Below are positions 1-5,036 of a DNA stretch of 5,036 nucleotides, one piece after another. Origin of the DNA: a virus (lineage: Duplodnaviria > Heunggongvirae > Uroviricota > Caudoviricetes). Where the stretch lies: the IMG/VR virus record IMGVR_UViG_2698536676_000008, positions 1 through 5,036 of that record. The stretch is one strand, 5' to 3'. Below the pieces are notes generated by a model. That model was not told where the DNA came from, searched no databases, and was given only the letters and a program-made list of their open reading frames with translations. Numbering within the stretch: position 1 is the stretch's first letter; each line of letters begins with the position of its first letter. A program made the position numbers and the translations under genes.

Positions 1-702
1 ATCAGCCAGGCTATGGCGGGAGCTGCGCCAGTAGTTACCTCTGGAAAACGAACTATCACGGCACCAAGTGATGTGCAGATTTATGACAACGGCTACAAGG
101 TGGTTACAGGTGAGGATAAGAGCTTCTTTGGTTCGCTATTTGATTCCACGGTGTCAGGGCTTAAACAGACAGGAACCGCAGTAATTCCTGCCGTTGGCGA
201 TAACCTTTCACGACTTGTTGGGGGGATTGATAGTACAGGGATATTGAACGATCTTGTAATGCAGTCTACTGGGCAGAATAGTGCGATTGCGCGAGCTATT
301 AGCCCATTAACAAGAAATGTTGGAGACTGGCTGAATGGGGGGATTCAACAAACCGCTAATAGCATTAGGGGAATAGCAACTGGTGCCAATAACGCCATAT
401 TTGGCTCTGCTTCAGCTGTGCAAGAACCTTTTCTTGCTATGCCGCCACAACTCCCTACTGTAACCGATCTCGCACGAAGCGGAATAAGACAACCATTAAC
501 TACTGACACTATAAATAACGATCCTGCTATGTTGAAGGCGCTGGATAACATCTGCTCTATCCTGAACGATCTGCTGAATGTGAACAAGAACAATACAAAA
601 GGCGATCCGGATAATGTTGTCAAAACATCGCAGCCGCAGCCGCGACCACGTGCGAGCACAACTATTAATGACCAGTCGCTGGATGCTCTGCTTGAGGATT
701 AA
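1..702 (+). CDS. Phage tail/baseplate structural protein, C-terminal portion (5' end lies outside window); function unassigned
   Basis: Frame 1 is open from base 1 with no upstream stop, so the ATG at 13 is probably internal. Stop TAA at 700-702. Gly/Ala/Ser/Thr/Asn-rich low-complexity sequence with a Pro/Gln-rich C-terminal tail (QPQPRPR). Sits immediately upstream of, and co-oriented with, the gp25-like gene, the position a spike/hub or tape-measure-type gene occupies in myovirus tail operons. Function is inferred from position only. Confidence 0.55.
   Translation: MSQAMAGAAPVVTSGKRTITAPSDVQIYDNGYKVVTGEDKSFFGSLFDSTVSGLKQTGTAVIPAVGDNLSRLVGGIDSTGILNDLVMQSTGQNSAIARAISPLTRNVGDWLNGGIQQTANSIRGIATGANNAIFGSASAVQEPFLAMPPQLPTVTDLARSGIRQPLTTDTINNDPAMLKALDNICSILNDLLNVNKNNTKGDPDNVVKTSQPQPRPRASTTINDQSLDALLED
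694..698 (+). promoter_or_regulatory. Shine-Dalgarno-like GAGGA for the CDS starting at 708
   Basis: GAGGA ends 9 nt upstream of ATG 708, inside the 3' end of the preceding CDS. Confidence 0.5.
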
Positions 703-707
703 TACTG

Positions 708-1082
708 ATGCTTTACGAAATAGACGCAAGACTTCAAACGAATGAGAGCGGTGTCATTATTGCAGAAGGAAGTACCGCAGCATGGATGGCCCGACTTGAC
801 GAGTGGCTACGAACCCCTGAAGGGAGTGTTTATGGTTTACCCTCTTGGGGGAGTCCAATGGAAGAATTTAAGCATGAACCATTCGGCTCTGAAACTTCGC
901 ACATAGTTGAAGTGGCTATTGAAGGGAGAATGATGAAAAAACTACGACAAGACTTGCCAGGTTTGGATGTGCAAGGGATTCGTTGCACATCAATTTCTGA
1001 AGATTCTTTATTAATTAGTTTTTATGCGAAAGGTGGGAGCATGGATATTGTTATGCAGAAATCAAGTGGGGTGGGCGCGTGA
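708..1082 (+). CDS. Baseplate wedge protein, gp25/GpW-like (124 aa)
   Basis: ATG at 708 with GAGGA 9 nt upstream. The segment LRTPEGSVYGLPSWGSP resembles the core of the gp25/GpW family (T4 gp25 TRKGSRPFDPEFG; P2 gpW LRTPVGSR...DYGS), recalled from memory. Small size and position directly before a large baseplate gene fit the conserved gp25-then-gp6 order. Stop TGA 1080-1082 overlaps the next start. Confidence 0.6.
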   Translation: MLYEIDARLQTNESGVIIAEGSTAAWMARLDEWLRTPEGSVYGLPSWGSPMEEFKHEPFGSETSHIVEVAIEGRMMKKLRQDLPGLDVQGIRCTSISEDSLLISFYAKGGSMDIVMQKSSGVGA

Positions 1083-2509
1083 CGATTACAGAATTACTGG
1101 ACAAATTTAACGCCAAGTTAAATGAAAATACATGGTGGTCACGATTTGTAAATAGTCAGTTTGTGCAGATGCACGCTATATTCGGATCGCAGCTTATTTA
1201 TATTGCCCGTACATTTGCAAGTCGCGGCCTCACTGAGGGACTTATTTCAACGGCAACGCGCCGCTCAAGTATTTTAGCGGTTGCTGAAGACCGTAGCTAC
1301 GTAGGGCGATTTGTTAGTGCTTCATACGGAACAACGTCTATAACAAATAAAACTGATCGGGATATTACGTTACCAGCCGGGGCTGAATTGCTTGCCAATG
1401 ACCAAACACCTTTGGCAATTATTAACAGTGTTGTAATTCCTGCTGGAGGAACTGTTTCTGGCGTAGAAACTAAACAGCATGAAGCTGTTAGCATTACGTT
1501 TGATATTGAGAAGGAAACTTTATTTCTGACATTGTTGCTTTCCAGAGAGTTAACAAAAGAAGTCTCTAGCCTGGATGTTTATGTTATTACAGATGGAGTA
1601 GAAGAAAAATGGACATATAACCCATTATTTAGAATGTCCAGAGACAAGAGTAAGCACTATTCATTGGCATATAAACCTACAGAACAACTTGGAGTCAAGT
1701 TTGGTGATGGTTCTATGGGTATGATGCCTCCAGCAGGCTGTCAGGTTCGAATCGATGTTATGGCTAGCCTTGGCGACTATACTTTGGCTGAAGGACAAAA
1801 GTTAGAACCGGCTGGAAATATCGCTCAATATGTGGAGTCACTAGAGTTTAAAACTGATTCGATCATTACCGGTGGTAGTGGTATGGAAACTACAGAAGAA
1901 ACTCGAAATCGTGCTCAGTATTATGTTGCATACGATGAACAAGTGGTATGGGGCGGTGATTATCGCCAATTCATTCAGAATGTTGTTCATGGAACTTCAT
2001 GGTTGAACGTTTGGGGCGAAGCGTTACAAGAGAAAATAACTGGGTTTGACGTTCGAAACATCAACAAAATTTTCTTTTGCGGACATAAGCCGGGTGTAAG
2101 CCAGTCTCAGCTAAAATCAGAAATACTGAAAGCTCTAGAGAATGTTCCAAATGAGTTGAACAAGCGGTTCGAGTATGTAGATACAAATGAACAGCCATTT
2201 ACTATAAATTTTATAGGTATTGCACGTAAAAATGTTCTGATAGACGATGCTCAAAATGCTATTAAAGCAGCGTTGGAAGATAATTTTGGCCGTGATTCGT
2301 CATCATTCAGTTTATTACTACAGAGTGATGATGATTCCCAGCAATGTTATGCACAGGTAAAAGTTAAGGATATTTGGCGAGTAATAGAGTCTCTGGATAT
2401 GTTTCTGTCTTACGACATAACAATACAAAATATGAAAGATGCTGTTTACTTTAATGACTTCATTTATCTTAACGTAAAATCTTCAACGTTCAGCATTTCT
2501 TACCCGTAA
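1079..2509 (+). CDS. Baseplate protein, gp6/GpJ-like (Baseplate_J-type), 476 aa
   Basis: First start codon after the in-frame stop at 1013-1015 is GTG 1079, overlapping the upstream TGA (GTGA); a purine-rich GGGGTGGG lies just upstream. The first in-frame ATG is 30 codons further in, so the exact start is uncertain. Long uninterrupted ORF following a gp25-like gene; the segment AYKPTEQLGVKFGDGSMGMMPPAGCQV is reminiscent of the Gly/Pro-rich core of baseplate J proteins (from memory, unverified). Stop TAA 2507-2509. Confidence 0.65.
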   Translation: MTITELLDKFNAKLNENTWWSRFVNSQFVQMHAIFGSQLIYIARTFASRGLTEGLISTATRRSSILAVAEDRSYVGRFVSASYGTTSITNKTDRDITLPAGAELLANDQTPLAIINSVVIPAGGTVSGVETKQHEAVSITFDIEKETLFLTLLLSRELTKEVSSLDVYVITDGVEEKWTYNPLFRMSRDKSKHYSLAYKPTEQLGVKFGDGSMGMMPPAGCQVRIDVMASLGDYTLAEGQKLEPAGNIAQYVESLEFKTDSIITGGSGMETTEETRNRAQYYVAYDEQVVWGGDYRQFIQNVVHGTSWLNVWGEALQEKITGFDVRNINKIFFCGHKPGVSQSQLKSEILKALENVPNELNKRFEYVDTNEQPFTINFIGIARKNVLIDDAQNAIKAALEDNFGRDSSSFSLLLQSDDDSQQCYAQVKVKDIWRVIESLDMFLSYDITIQNMKDAVYFNDFIYLNVKSSTFSISYP

Positions 2510-2510
2510 T

Positions 2511-2514
2511 GAGG
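2511..2514 (+). promoter_or_regulatory. Shine-Dalgarno-like GAGG for the CDS starting at 2520
   Basis: GAGG ends 5 nt upstream of ATG 2520, in the 10-nt spacer after the TAA at 2507-2509. Confidence 0.5.
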
Positions 2515-2519
2515 TTAGC

Positions 2520-3365
2520 ATGAAAGATAATTGGCTTAAGGAACGATTAACTAAAGTAAAACAGGATTCACATCTCTGGAGTGCATTTATAGACGCTTTA
2601 CAGGATGTCTGGAATGAGGCAGTAGAACCAATATTAACAAGAATAAGTAACAGAAAATCCTTCTTCACTATGGACAGTGAGGATATGGATGCCCGCATTG
2701 CTGAATACGGGCGTTTTTTCGTTATCACTGAAAAAGATAATGCCCGTAGGCCAATGCTTCTGGCGCAGCGTTTAGATGAAGTGCACTTTAAAGGTACTAT
2801 CTTGCCTATTGAGCAGACATTCTGGCGTGAATTCGGTTGTATTCCTGTTAGTTGGGAACCGCTGTATGCACCTGTAAATATAGAAAAACACCCCTATGGT
2901 TCATATTTTGCGACCGAAATAGAAATACCTACGGCACAGGCTCAATTCGGTGAGCTCTTCCTGACATCAAGGGGGCTGGTCGTTGTTGATCAGAACAAGC
3001 TATATCGCTCATATGGAGAGCAGGATAAAGAAGCCGCTGTGCAGAAATTGTTATCTGACTTCGAAACAGTAATAGCCCCTTTGTTGCCATTGCATATTGT
3101 TTTTGATGGCGTCTCGTTTCGGCTTAGTGCTGTATTCCCTGAAGTGGCAGAAATATTAAATTACCTGTCTACGGATGTTTCGGTAATTGAAGGTGTTTAT
3201 GTTACTGAGAGTATGGCTGATATGCTATCCCGTAGTGATACCTCCTGCCAGGCAGACAATATTTCTCTTAATGCCATACCGAACCGAACGGCAGAAAAGC
3301 AATTACATCTTGATGTAACCCCACTCGATGCGTGGCCTTTGGATTACCACCTTCAATCTGTTTAA
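2520..3365 (+). CDS. Putative baseplate/tail protein (occupies the position of P2 gpI / Mu gp48-type wedge component); function not established
   Basis: ATG 2520 with GAGG 5 nt upstream. 281-aa ORF ending in tandem stops TAATAA (3363-3368). Co-oriented and closely spaced within the baseplate operon. No motif I can assign confidently; the call is from synteny. Confidence 0.55.
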   Translation: MKDNWLKERLTKVKQDSHLWSAFIDALQDVWNEAVEPILTRISNRKSFFTMDSEDMDARIAEYGRFFVITEKDNARRPMLLAQRLDEVHFKGTILPIEQTFWREFGCIPVSWEPLYAPVNIEKHPYGSYFATEIEIPTAQAQFGELFLTSRGLVVVDQNKLYRSYGEQDKEAAVQKLLSDFETVIAPLLPLHIVFDGVSFRLSAVFPEVAEILNYLSTDVSVIEGVYVTESMADMLSRSDTSCQADNISLNAIPNRTAEKQLHLDVTPLDAWPLDYHLQSV

Positions 3366-3368
3366 TAA

Positions 3369-3394
3369 TTCTTCCCCCGCATTTGGGGGAAGAA
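3369..3394 (+). promoter_or_regulatory. Perfect inverted repeat / RNA stem-loop (10-bp stem TTCTTCCCCC / GGGGGAAGAA, 6-nt loop GCATTT)
   Basis: Read directly from the sequence. Starts immediately after the tandem stop codons of the upstream CDS, inside the only long (94-nt) intergenic spacer of the operon. No U-tract follows on either strand, so it is not a canonical intrinsic terminator. Confidence 0.4.
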
Positions 3395-3442
3395 CAACGG
3401 AAATCACAAACTGAGCATACTCTCCTTTGGTTCATTGCTTAT

Positions 3443-3449
3443 GAAGGGG
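3443..3449 (+). promoter_or_regulatory. Shine-Dalgarno-like GAAGGGG for the CDS starting at 3460
   Basis: Purine-rich GAAGGGG ends 10 nt upstream of ATG 3460. Confidence 0.45.
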
Positions 3450-3459
3450 CTATGTTCGT

Positions 3460-3906
3460 ATGGCTGAAAATTTAAAGGCAAGAGATGGTAACCGCCTGTA
3501 TAAGGCGCAATTACTTTCCTACTATTATTCACGCCGCGCAGAGTCGGCGATCGGCAAAGGTGCGCGTTTTGTTATCTCTAAGGCGTATTGGTGCAAATCT
3601 AGTCTGGTAACTGCTAATGGTGCAGGAGGCTGGAATATAGCGGACATTCCGCTCGATTTTAAATTGAGTGGCGCTCAACAGTTTGCTGTGTCCGATCTGA
3701 TATTGTCCAGCGTGGATGGGATTATCACGATCAATGCAGCCTTCCCTCAAGAAAGAATGCCGGATAACACGCCTTACGACTTTAACACGCTTGTGCTTGT
3801 TGATGCTGAGGAACAGGCTTTTGGTGTGCTTTGCACCCAGCAAGATACCCTCTATAAAGGTAAACGTTACAGTATTCTCATGACAATCGAGCAAGTTGAG
3901 GGTTGA
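3460..3906 (+). CDS. Hypothetical protein, probably tail fibre-associated (148 aa)
   Basis: ATG 3460 preceded by GAAGGGG. Stop TGA 3904-3906 lies 2 nt before the fibre ATG, suggesting translational coupling. Position immediately upstream of the fibre gene matches the small R-type genes that precede S in Mu/P1-like fibre operons (from memory). No recognisable motif. Confidence 0.55.
   Translation: MAENLKARDGNRLYKAQLLSYYYSRRAESAIGKGARFVISKAYWCKSSLVTANGAGGWNIADIPLDFKLSGAQQFAVSDLILSSVDGIITINAAFPQERMPDNTPYDFNTLVLVDAEEQAFGVLCTQQDTLYKGKRYSILMTIEQVEG
3898..3902 (+). promoter_or_regulatory. Shine-Dalgarno-like GAGGG for the tail fibre CDS
   Basis: GAGGG ends 6 nt upstream of ATG 3909, inside the 3' end of the preceding CDS. 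Confidence 0.55.
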
Positions 3907-3908
3907 TT

Positions 3909-5036
3909 ATGGGGGCTGATAAAACGAACAACATAATGACACTATCCTCTGGTGTCTCACAGTCGTTGCTTGCTGATGTTCAATATTTCGAACTCTATAG
4001 TAGTCTGGCTCTTAACAGAAAACTAAAAAATATTGTTTTGCCTGGCTTTTACTGTGGATTTGAACCGGTTCCCGGCACAGGGTTGAGTGTCCGCATAACT
4101 TCTGAAAACTCAGAAGGTAAAGGGGCTGCTTCAGTAGATGTAAATAATGTTCAGATATCCGTTCAGCAAATAGAAGATGTGACTGTCTCGGTAAAGGCAG
4201 GGGCTACCAACATTATTGTGCTGGAAGCCAATTTTGAACATGGTGTAAAAACGACACAGGTAGATAGCGCATCTTCTGTCAGTGCTGCAAGAATTTACGC
4301 GCGTACGGACAATACTATTGGGCAGAATCAAATTGAATTATGTCGAGTTATCGTGCCTAGCGGCGCAACGGCTGTGACTAAAGAAATGATTGTGCTTAAA
4401 TACCGGGTTAACCGGGCTGTTGGTGTCGAATTCTCTAATGAAATAAGCAGTACAGAAGAAAGAAAAGCGGCTACACCGAAAGCTGTCAAGGCTGCATATG
4501 ACCTGGCTAACGGGAAGTACACAGCCCAGGATGCAACCACGACACAAAAAGGGATAGTTCAGCTCAGTAGCGACACCAACAGCACTTCTGAAACATTAGC
4601 TGCAACTCCAAAAGCGGTTAAAGCTGCATACGATCTAGCAGCCGGAAAGGCACCATCCAATCATATACATCCCTGGAATCAGATCACTGGTGTGCCAACA
4701 GCTTCATTGACAGCGAAAGGCATCACTCAGCTCAGTAGTGCCACTAACAGCACGTCTGAAGTGCTGGCCGCTACACCGAAAGCTGTCAANNNNNNNNNNN
4801 NNNNNNNNNNNNNNNNNAAAGCTGTCAAGGCTGCATACGATCTGGCAAACGGAAAACAACCGGCAGATGCCACGCTCACTGCTCTGGCAGGACTTGCCAC
4901 TGCAGCAGATCGGTTGCCTTATTTTACCGGAGCAGACCGCGCAGCGCTGACAACCCTTACAGCTATTGGTCGCGCTATTATCGCTAAGGGCAGTATAAAA
5001 GATGTCCTCAATTACCTTGGTTTAGGAGAAGGCTCG
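3909..5036 (+). CDS. Tail fibre protein, N-terminal constant portion (P2 gpH / lambda Stf / Mu-P1 S family); 3' end lies outside window
   Basis: ATG 3909 with GAGGG 6 nt upstream. This frame was not in the supplied ORF track because it has no stop in the window. My own translation is open from 3909 to 5036 and stays in frame across the N run. It contains three copies of AATPKAVKAAYDLA(N/A)GK, two copies of KGI(V/T)QLSS(D/A)TNSTSE(T/V)L, and then GKQPADATLTALAGLATAADRLPYFTGADRAALTTLTAIGRAIIAKGSIKDVLNYLGLGEGS, which closely matches the collar segment I recall from P2 gpH and lambda Stf. Confidence 0.9.
   Translation, partial: MGADKTNNIMTLSSGVSQSLLADVQYFELYSSLALNRKLKNIVLPGFYCGFEPVPGTGLSVRITSENSEGKGAASVDVNNVQISVQQIEDVTVSVKAGATNIIVLEANFEHGVKTTQVDSASSVSAARIYARTDNTIGQNQIELCRVIVPSGATAVTKEMIVLKYRVNRAVGVEFSNEISSTEERKAATPKAVKAAYDLANGKYTAQDATTTQKGIVQLSSDTNSTSETLAATPKAVKAAYDLAAGKAPSNHIHPWNQITGVPTASLTAKGITQLSSATNSTSEVLAATPKAVXXXXXXXXXXKAVKAAYDLANGKQPADATLTALAGLATAADRLPYFTGADRAALTTLTAIGRAIIAKGSIKDVLNYLGLGEGS
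4467..4856 (+). repeat. Intragenic in-frame tandem repeats encoding the tail fibre collar motif
   Basis: AATPKAVKAAYDLA-GK is encoded at 4467-4517, 4599-4649 and 4767 onward across the gap to 4856. The longer unit with KGI-QLSS-TNSTSE-L is at 4545-4649 and 4713-4789+. The 11-mer AAAGCTGTCAA occurs at 4479-4489, 4779-4789 and 4818-4828. Confidence 0.85.
4790..4817. other. Run of 28 N (assembly/scaffold gap or masked bases) inside the tail fibre repeat region
   Basis: Direct observation. The gap is flanked on both sides by the identical 11-mer AAAGCTGTCAA, and the fibre frame is preserved across it (AAN plus 9 NNN codons, then AAA). Confidence 0.95.
5005..5030. other. Candidate Din-invertase crossover-like sequence (cix/gix/hix-type) at the end of the fibre constant region
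   Basis: TCCTCAATTACC-TT-GGTTTAGGAGAA. The right half matches the recalled half-site consensus GGTTTTNGATAA at 10 of 12 positions; the left half is weak (about 8 of 12). It encodes the conserved NYLGLGE motif. The resemblance could simply reflect coding conservation. Confidence 0.25.

Follow-up and report, generated by a model that had tools for sequence, protein, structure and literature searches.

The window, the whole 5,036-nucleotide stretch of DNA analysed here, covers the tail and baseplate end of a D6-like phage-plasmid of the P1 family. Positions 187-4477 match phage D6 at 96.7%, and the DNA similarity to D6 stops at 4477. Positions 1-4789 are 99.8% identical to the plasmid NZ_CP022228.3, while the 219 nt that follow a run of Ns, 4818-5036, are 100% identical to the plasmids NZ_MN101851.1 and NZ_MN101855.1 and one base off NZ_CP022228.3. 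The genes, named by the D6 annotation, are listed in Table 1 and end with the constant part of the tail-fibre gene S. The translation of this open reading frame through the site that concerns us, which we term site a, ends ...DVLNYLGLGEGS. In the full-length relative the Pfam matches are Phage_fiber_2 repeats followed by a Collar domain.

Table 1. Annotated features of the window (coordinates in nucleotides from its first letter).
Feature	Position	Strand	Remarks
sit			3' end only in the window; D6 annotation
pmgA	708-1082		D6 annotation
bplA	1079-2509		D6 annotation
gene 16	2520-3365		D6 annotation
P1/D6 gene R homologue	3460-3906	+	D6 annotation 'similar to P1 gene R'; adjoins the fibre gene on its upstream side
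Constant part (Sc) of tail-fibre gene S	3909-5036	+	Homologue of D6 gene S; reading frame exits the window
Gap of 28 Ns between duplicated AAAGCTGTCAA	4790-4817	.	Within a tandem repeat of about 300 nt in the fibre gene
Crossover site (site a)	5005-5030	+	26 bp, where the constant part of the tail-fibre gene meets the variable part
Left half-site TCCTCAATTACC	5005-5016	+	Remains attached to the constant fibre part
First 23 nt of an imperfect inverted repeat of about 229 nt	5014-5036	+	Shared start of the alternative fibre tips
Central TT dinucleotide	5017-5018	+	Where staggered cleavage and strand exchange are inferred to occur
Right half-site GGTTTAGGAGAA	5019-5030	+	Encodes GLGE; moves with the invertible segment

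The run of Ns sits in the tandem repeat of the fibre gene with AAAGCTGTCAA duplicated on either side, and is therefore an assembly gap. Relatives have at least one extra copy of the fibre repeat at this place. A scaffolding error here would mean that the 219 nt after the gap came from a chromosomal P2-like prophage of the same genome, and that site a was the crossover site of another phage. Such an error would fit the gap itself, which has duplicated 11-mer flanks and lies in a repeated motif common to many fibre genes, and it would also fit the distribution of the stretch carrying site a, which 609 out of 5426 complete E. coli genomes contain, at 676 chromosomal places and only 12 on plasmids. 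However, complete plasmids contain the same fibre-gene junction without a gap. In addition, the post-gap stretch carries T4823 and A4950, the bases of the plasmid lineage, and both are absent from all of the chromosomal prophage copies examined. Given these two bases and the perfect plasmid identity around them, we conclude that the scaffold join is sound and that the plasmids are fair proxies for the DNA downstream of the window; a mis-join is scarcely credible.

Within the fibre gene, positions 5005-5030 read TCCTCAATTACC-TT-GGTTTAGGAGAA, and the frame passes through them as NYLGLGE. An earlier note on this DNA had proposed that these bases form a crossover site for a DNA invertase at the junction between the constant and variable parts of the fibre gene. 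The half-site that it gave, TTATCNAAAACC, was essentially right, being close to the real half-sites TTATCCAAAACC of gix and TTATCCAATACC of cix. We read five sites directly out of the annotated genomes of Mu, P1 and e14: Mu gix (TTATCCAAAACC-TC-GGTTTACAGGAA), P1 cixL (CAATCCTAAACC-TT-GGTTTAAGAGAA), P1 cixR (TTATCCAATACC-TT-GGTTTAAGAGAA) and the two e14 pix sites (CTCTCGAAAACC-TT-GGTTTGGGAGAA and TTTTCATAAACG-TT-GGTTTGGGAGAA). A half-site weight matrix was built from these five, and on this matrix site a scores 21.9 bits, with the second-best 26-mer in the window reaching 1.9 bits. The right half contributes 19.5 bits and the left half 2.5 bits, in agreement with the earlier note, which called the right half good and the left one degenerate. 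The left halves of the partner sites described below score lower than this 2.5 bits.

A chance resemblance to invertase sites was considered and rejected on the score of 21.9 bits, which none of 2000 windows simulated with a first-order Markov model attained, the highest simulated value being 20.2 bits. Site a has the organisation of gix, cix and pix, with 12-bp, imperfectly symmetric halves around a 2-bp core. The peptide encoded across the site is LGLGE in the window, as it is in e14, whereas P1 and D6 have LGLRE. Furthermore, the site is identical to a published inversion endpoint, to which we return below. The proposal that an invertase site lies at the constant/variable junction was correct, and 5005-5030 is a genuine DNA-invertase crossover site.

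Only 6 nt of the window follow site a, and the partner sites and invertase are known from relatives. The earlier note had suggested looking for an inverted copy of the site downstream, fibre C-terminal segments in the opposite orientation, an open reading frame for a fibre-assembly chaperone and a serine recombinase of about 190 residues nearby, and all of these are present in complete plasmids 99.8-100% identical to the window. In these plasmids the fibre reading frame runs for about 168 further codons into a Pfam Collar domain. It is followed by a 204-aa assembly gene of the Caudo_TAP type, two more Collar-domain segments, which lie on the other strand and lack start codons of their own, a gene for a 190-aa recombinase on the same strand as the fibre gene, and the lydA holin gene. 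Two inverted partners of site a lie within this cassette, both on the opposite strand and both with the same TT core. Site b (GGCATAGAAACG-TT-GGTTTGGGGGAA) is about 1.6 kb downstream of site a. Site c (GAGAGATAAACG-TT-GGTTTGGGGGAA) is about 2.07 kb downstream, with the invertase gene directly after it.

Inverted repeats of 229 nt begin inside site a, and their partner arms end at sites b and c. In the locus L002, where position 10876 corresponds to window position 5014, the arm at 10876-11104 is 95% identical to that at 12709-12937 and 86% identical to that at 12270-12498. All three alternative tips are read in the frame ...NYLGLGE then GSALPVGVPVPWP..., carry a Pfam Collar domain and end ...NYIVRA(A/V). 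As the right halves all encode GLGE followed by GSALPVGVPVPWP..., every exchange between the sites preserves the reading frame. The fibre gene is accordingly split, with a switchable C-terminal part, as are S/S' of Mu and of P1 and StfP/StfE of e14. There is a single assembly-chaperone gene, co-oriented with one of the three tips. Annotation pipelines give these tips no label beyond 'phage tail protein'.

The recombinase encoded next to site c matches the Gin structures 3UJ3 and 4M6F with an E-value of about 1e-93. It is 73% identical to Gin, 72% to Cin and 76% to Pin, with Ser9 among the invariant columns of the alignment, so that in the relatives a serine recombinase of the invertase subgroup and of about 190 aa adjoins the crossover sites. 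An NCBIfam scan returned only matches below the cutoff for the invertase, and none for the fibre protein and its neighbours. The same protein, WP_000904922.1, is the invertase in NZ_CP022228.3 and in ST131 chromosomes alike. At least 2.8 kb of sequence follows site a in 17 loci, and in 15 of these the invertase is encoded on the fibre strand at a distance of 1.7-2.2 kb downstream. Two loci, L008 and L025, have site a and no invertase within about 7 kb downstream.

We also compared the invertase gene with the enhancer of P1, which lies at nucleotides 19-90 of cin. The homologous stretch is identical at 54 of 72 positions (75%), compared with 69 of 110 (63%) over the next 110 nt, the region being conserved coding sequence. 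At third codon positions identity is 12 of 24 inside the homologous stretch and 13 of 36 outside it. These values do not separate enhancer function from coding constraint, and are no more than suggestive of a Fis enhancer in the 5' part of the invertase gene, where it is annotated in P1.

The presence of two loci with site a and no nearby invertase bears on the question of whether the switch in the window's own element is intact. It may be that site a is a relic there, the cassette or invertase having been deleted, truncated or inactivated, and that the fibre is now fixed in one state or is switched only in trans, by another invertase of the cell. The window itself stops at 5036, and damaged inversion regions have been reported in P1-like plasmids (PMC6906374). 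In the prophage Phi4 of E. coli EC958 inversion still occurs with a truncated invertase (PMC4134206). A relic is nonetheless very unlikely, since all five of the complete D6-like plasmids examined that carry site a keep the full cassette with an intact 190-aa invertase, and the segment of the window after the gap is identical throughout to two of these plasmids. We favour instead a switch that is still in place.

Evidence for inversion at site a came from assemblies of different isolates and from the published PacBio study of EC958. Across 30 loci, comprising plasmids, chromosomal prophages and IMG/VR contigs, the left half of site a with the same upstream fibre sequence is joined at TT to at least nine different right-hand sequences. 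Conversely, the same right halves with their downstream sequence occur behind the left halves of a, b and c in different genomes. We then carried out inversions in silico, cutting exactly at the TT cores and aligning the product to a sibling sequence. Inverting NZ_CP022228.3 between a and b gave NZ_CP032875.1 over 6500 nt at 100.000% identity, and the same operation on NZ_MN101851.1 gave NZ_MN101855.1 over 7500 nt with no mismatches and one gap. In the ST131-type chromosomal prophage L005, inversion between a and c reproduced L006 (7000 nt, 100%), and inversion between a and c followed by b and c reproduced L003 (7000 nt, 100%). All four reconstructed inversions were free of mismatches, and two of the four are on D6-like plasmids. 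Inversion at the TT cores exactly interconverts the isomers, of which public genomes contain at least four, and all three tips are seen there fused to the constant part.

These results place the inverted partners, with their common TT core, within a few kilobases of site a in the relatives (about 1.6 and 2.07 kb), and show both orientations with exchange at the central dinucleotide. The earlier note had suggested that, with a functional site, the C-terminus of the fibre would be switchable by inversion, and sibling plasmids and prophages do differ by exact inversion at the TT core. It had also looked to long reads for both orientations, and these exist for the identical site in EC958, where PacBio reads assembled both orientations of the invertible segment in the prophage Phi2 (Forde et al. 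2014, PLoS One 9:e104400, PMC4134206).

Inverted repeats of 229 nt, at 95% and 86% identity, are long and similar enough for homologous recombination, and a RecA-dependent exchange between them could also invert the segment. The 26-bp motif would in that case be merely the conserved start of a repeat. A short patch of site a converted to the sequence of its partner in NZ_CP028585.2 may point to some exchange of this kind. However, homologous exchange is expected to be scattered over the 229 nt and to leave hybrid arms, whereas the four reconstructed events all resolve, with no mismatches, to the first seven nucleotides of the repeat. Since the base just 5' of TT and the sixth base after TT are not the same in all the sites, exchange is confined to TTGGTTT, as expected from a staggered cut at the core and not from homologous recombination along 229 nt. 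The motif also matches the gix, cix and pix sites and, as described above, has a Gin-like invertase adjacent in most of the loci. Homologous recombination is thus a highly improbable source of these inversions, and we attribute them to the invertase.

Taken together, we are very confident that the 26 bp are the fixed, fibre-gene-side site of an invertase of the Gin/Cin/Pin type that switches the receptor-binding C-terminus of the fibre in a D6-like phage-plasmid of the P1 family. By analogy with Gin, Hin and Cin, dimers of the invertase would occupy site a and an inverted partner and synapse with a Fis-bound enhancer, which is probably located at the 5' end of the invertase gene. Both strands would then be cut with a 2-nt stagger at TT, one half rotated by 180 degrees and the ends religated. 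Such an exchange would place a different tip in frame behind ...NYLGLGE, and may thereby change the host range. From the same enzymes we would expect no productive recombination between directly oriented sites, such as b and c in the arrangement of L002.

Site a marks the place where the phage-plasmid can exchange its receptor-binding tip, so the sequence of a single assembly does not settle the host range. Sites of this kind also account for contig breaks, chimeric consensus bases and 'partial' annotations of fibre genes. Elements of this kind also spread resistance genes (PMC9600943). A scan of species-representative genomes with a degenerate 26-mer gave no matches, and the records in which the site was found are enterobacterial.

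The cassette has been described before. In EC958, an E. coli of ST131, the two sites given for Phi2 are Phi2_5prime, TCCTCAATTACCTT GGTTTAGGAGAA, and Phi2_3prime, GAGAGATAAACGTT GGTTTGGGGGAA, and they bound an invertible segment of 2067 bp and lie within an imperfect inverted repeat of 227 bp (PMC4134206, Table 3). Site a is identical to Phi2_5prime at 26 of 26 positions. The invertase-side site, GAGAGATAAACGTTGGTTTGGGGGAA, is also identical, and our distance of about 2.07 kb from a to c is close to the published 2067 bp. The invertase protein is the same, WP_000904922.1, and so are the Collar-type tips. The two differ in their context, the EC958 cassette being carried on a P2-like prophage by aroA-serC, whereas here the N-terminal part joined to it is that of a D6-like gene S, in a P1-family phage-plasmid. 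They differ too in the number of sites, two being given in the EC958 paper, whereas here a third, internal site, GGCATAGAAACG-TT-..., is also used. The cassette is the EC958 Phi2 cassette, and here it replaces the Cin C-segment that P1 and D6 carry. Site a is therefore already published and the mechanism is that of the textbooks, so the scientific addition is little; what we add is modest, namely the context of a P1-family plasmid and the use of the third internal site.

The C-segment of P1 and D6 occupies the same position as the cassette, with R and the constant part of S ahead of it and the lydA holin gene behind, and it follows the same logic, with a crossover site inside S and alternative variable C-terminal parts. 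Published work already places the greatest variability of D6-like and P1-like plasmids in this inversion region (PMC6799933, PMC6906374). The fibre-side site of D6, TTATCCAATACC-TT-GGTTTAAGAGAA, matches site a at 21 of 26 positions and differs at 5. Cin is 72% identical to the cassette enzyme, and in D6 the cin gene lies on the strand opposite to S, whereas the cassette invertase lies on the same strand. P1 and D6 have two sites, Sv/U pairs of the P1 type and two chaperones, in contrast to the three sites, Collar tips of 140-168 aa and single chaperone of the cassette. Orthology of the cassette to the Cin C-segment was considered and rejected, as the site, the enzyme and its strand, the tips and the number of chaperones all differ, and the similarity to D6 ends at 4477. 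The overall interpretation in the earlier note is supported, and only details differ, the cassette being of a Gin/Pin-like type shared with P2-like prophages rather than Cin/cix, with three sites rather than two.

Among the classical systems, Pin/pix of e14 in E. coli K-12 is the closest in both site and enzyme, Pin being 76% identical. The pix sites share with those of the cassette the TT core, a left half ending ...AAACG by the invertase and the peptide LGLGE. Unlike the cassette, e14 has two sites and the pairs StfP-TfaP and StfE-TfaE, and its left half-sites are different.

Multiple inversion has been described for Min of p15B, a plasmid related to P1 (Sandmeier et al. 1990, PNAS 87:1109). 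The likeness to Min lies in the P1-family plasmid, the presence of more than two crossover sites, the overlapping invertible segments and the several alternative tips. On p15B there are six mix sites, and more segments than in the cassette. It is likely that the cassette is a three-site, Min-like system of multiple inversion rather than the two-site switch given for Phi2 of EC958. In this reading b, whose left half consists of the final codons of one tip segment together with its stop codon, recombines with both a and c to give at least four isomers and three expressed tips, one of them with a co-oriented chaperone. By the same reading, the switch was transplanted from P2-like prophages into a P1-family phage-plasmid through recombination in the conserved fibre repeats, displacing Cin and its C-segment.

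Judged by its sequence, the tail-fibre gene at the end of the window (3909-5036) is a mosaic of three parts, whose joints map to the conserved ATPKAVKAAYD motif. A ~300-nt tandem repeat within the gene, built of Phage_fiber_2 units, encloses a 28-N gap, and the repeat region also takes in window 4430-4789. The number of repeat copies varies among relatives, giving a fibre of 628 aa in plasmid NZ_CP022228.3 versus 828 aa in NZ_MN101851.1.

Features of the window and of L002, the related locus on plasmid NZ_CP022228.3
Feature	Position	Strand	Remarks
P1 bplA homologue (baseplate protein)	window 1079-2509		D6 annotation 'baseplate J wedge protein'
Hairpin, TTCTTCCCCC-GCATTT-GGGGGAAGAA	window 3369-3394		perfect 10-bp stem
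Fibre gene, part 1	window 3909 to ~4477		D6-like DNA
Fibre gene, part 2	window 4467-4789		repeat unit, 97-98% match in phages vB_EcoM-813R1 and vB_EcoM-673R5
Fibre gene, part 3	final 219 nt of window		common to P2-like prophages
28-N gap	window 4790-4817		duplicated AAAGCTGTCAA on both flanks
Collar-domain tip	L002 10893-11396	+
Caudo_TAP assembly gene	L002 11396-12010
Collar-domain tip	L002 12017-12481	-
Crossover site b, GGCATAGAAACG-TT-GGTTTGGGGGAA	L002 12482-12507	-	third, internal site
Collar-domain tip	L002 12501-12920	-

Upstream of the fibre gene, a hairpin begins 4 nt past the stop codon of gene 16 and precedes R. The 56-nt stretch that contains it (3355-3410) folds with an energy of -20.8 kcal/mol (z = -4.6 against shuffled sequences), and no T-run follows the stem. 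The hairpin is also the second-best match in the window to the crossover-site matrix, built on the half-sites of gix, cix and pix, yet this match is negligible. Further upstream, a Pfam search assigned the bplA homologue to no family. In related plasmids RefSeq labels this protein 'bleomycin hydrolase' (WP_023908648.1), a name that is probably a propagated misannotation. On NZ_CP022228.3 we also observed a TnpB-family RNA-guided endonuclease gene (L002 17593-18801), a few kb past the inversion cassette and beyond the darA/ddrA-like genes.

Within the cassette of this plasmid, three alternative Collar-domain tips are accompanied by a single Caudo_TAP gene, which is co-oriented with only one of them. 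In the isomers expressing the other two tips, the assembly gene lies either antisense or 3' of a ~500-nt untranslated tip segment. Two IMG/VR contigs (L008 and L025) carry site a, the crossover site inside the fibre gene, and no invertase gene was found within ~7 kb downstream of it; their cassettes may have lost the enzyme or may depend on an invertase supplied in trans.

Comparison of L002 (10701-13100) with the sibling plasmid NZ_CP028585.2 (7700-10100) over 2400 nt revealed differences only at the crossover sites. Two bases of site a differ, both in its right half and both A to G in the sibling, giving the sequence of the partner site, and site b carries a 1-nt indel in its G-run. These differences could have arisen through short-patch conversion at the crossover sites, or could reflect consensus polishing of a culture containing both isomers.

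Site b is also present in the ST131-type chromosomal prophages L003, L005 and L006 and in locus L034. One of the tip segments ends at a stop codon (TAG) that falls within the left half of this site, and in public genomes site b has recombined with both site a and site c, the other inverted partner of a. Site b is absent from the list of crossover sites reported for the E. coli EC958 prophage Phi2 (Forde et al. 2014, PMC4134206).
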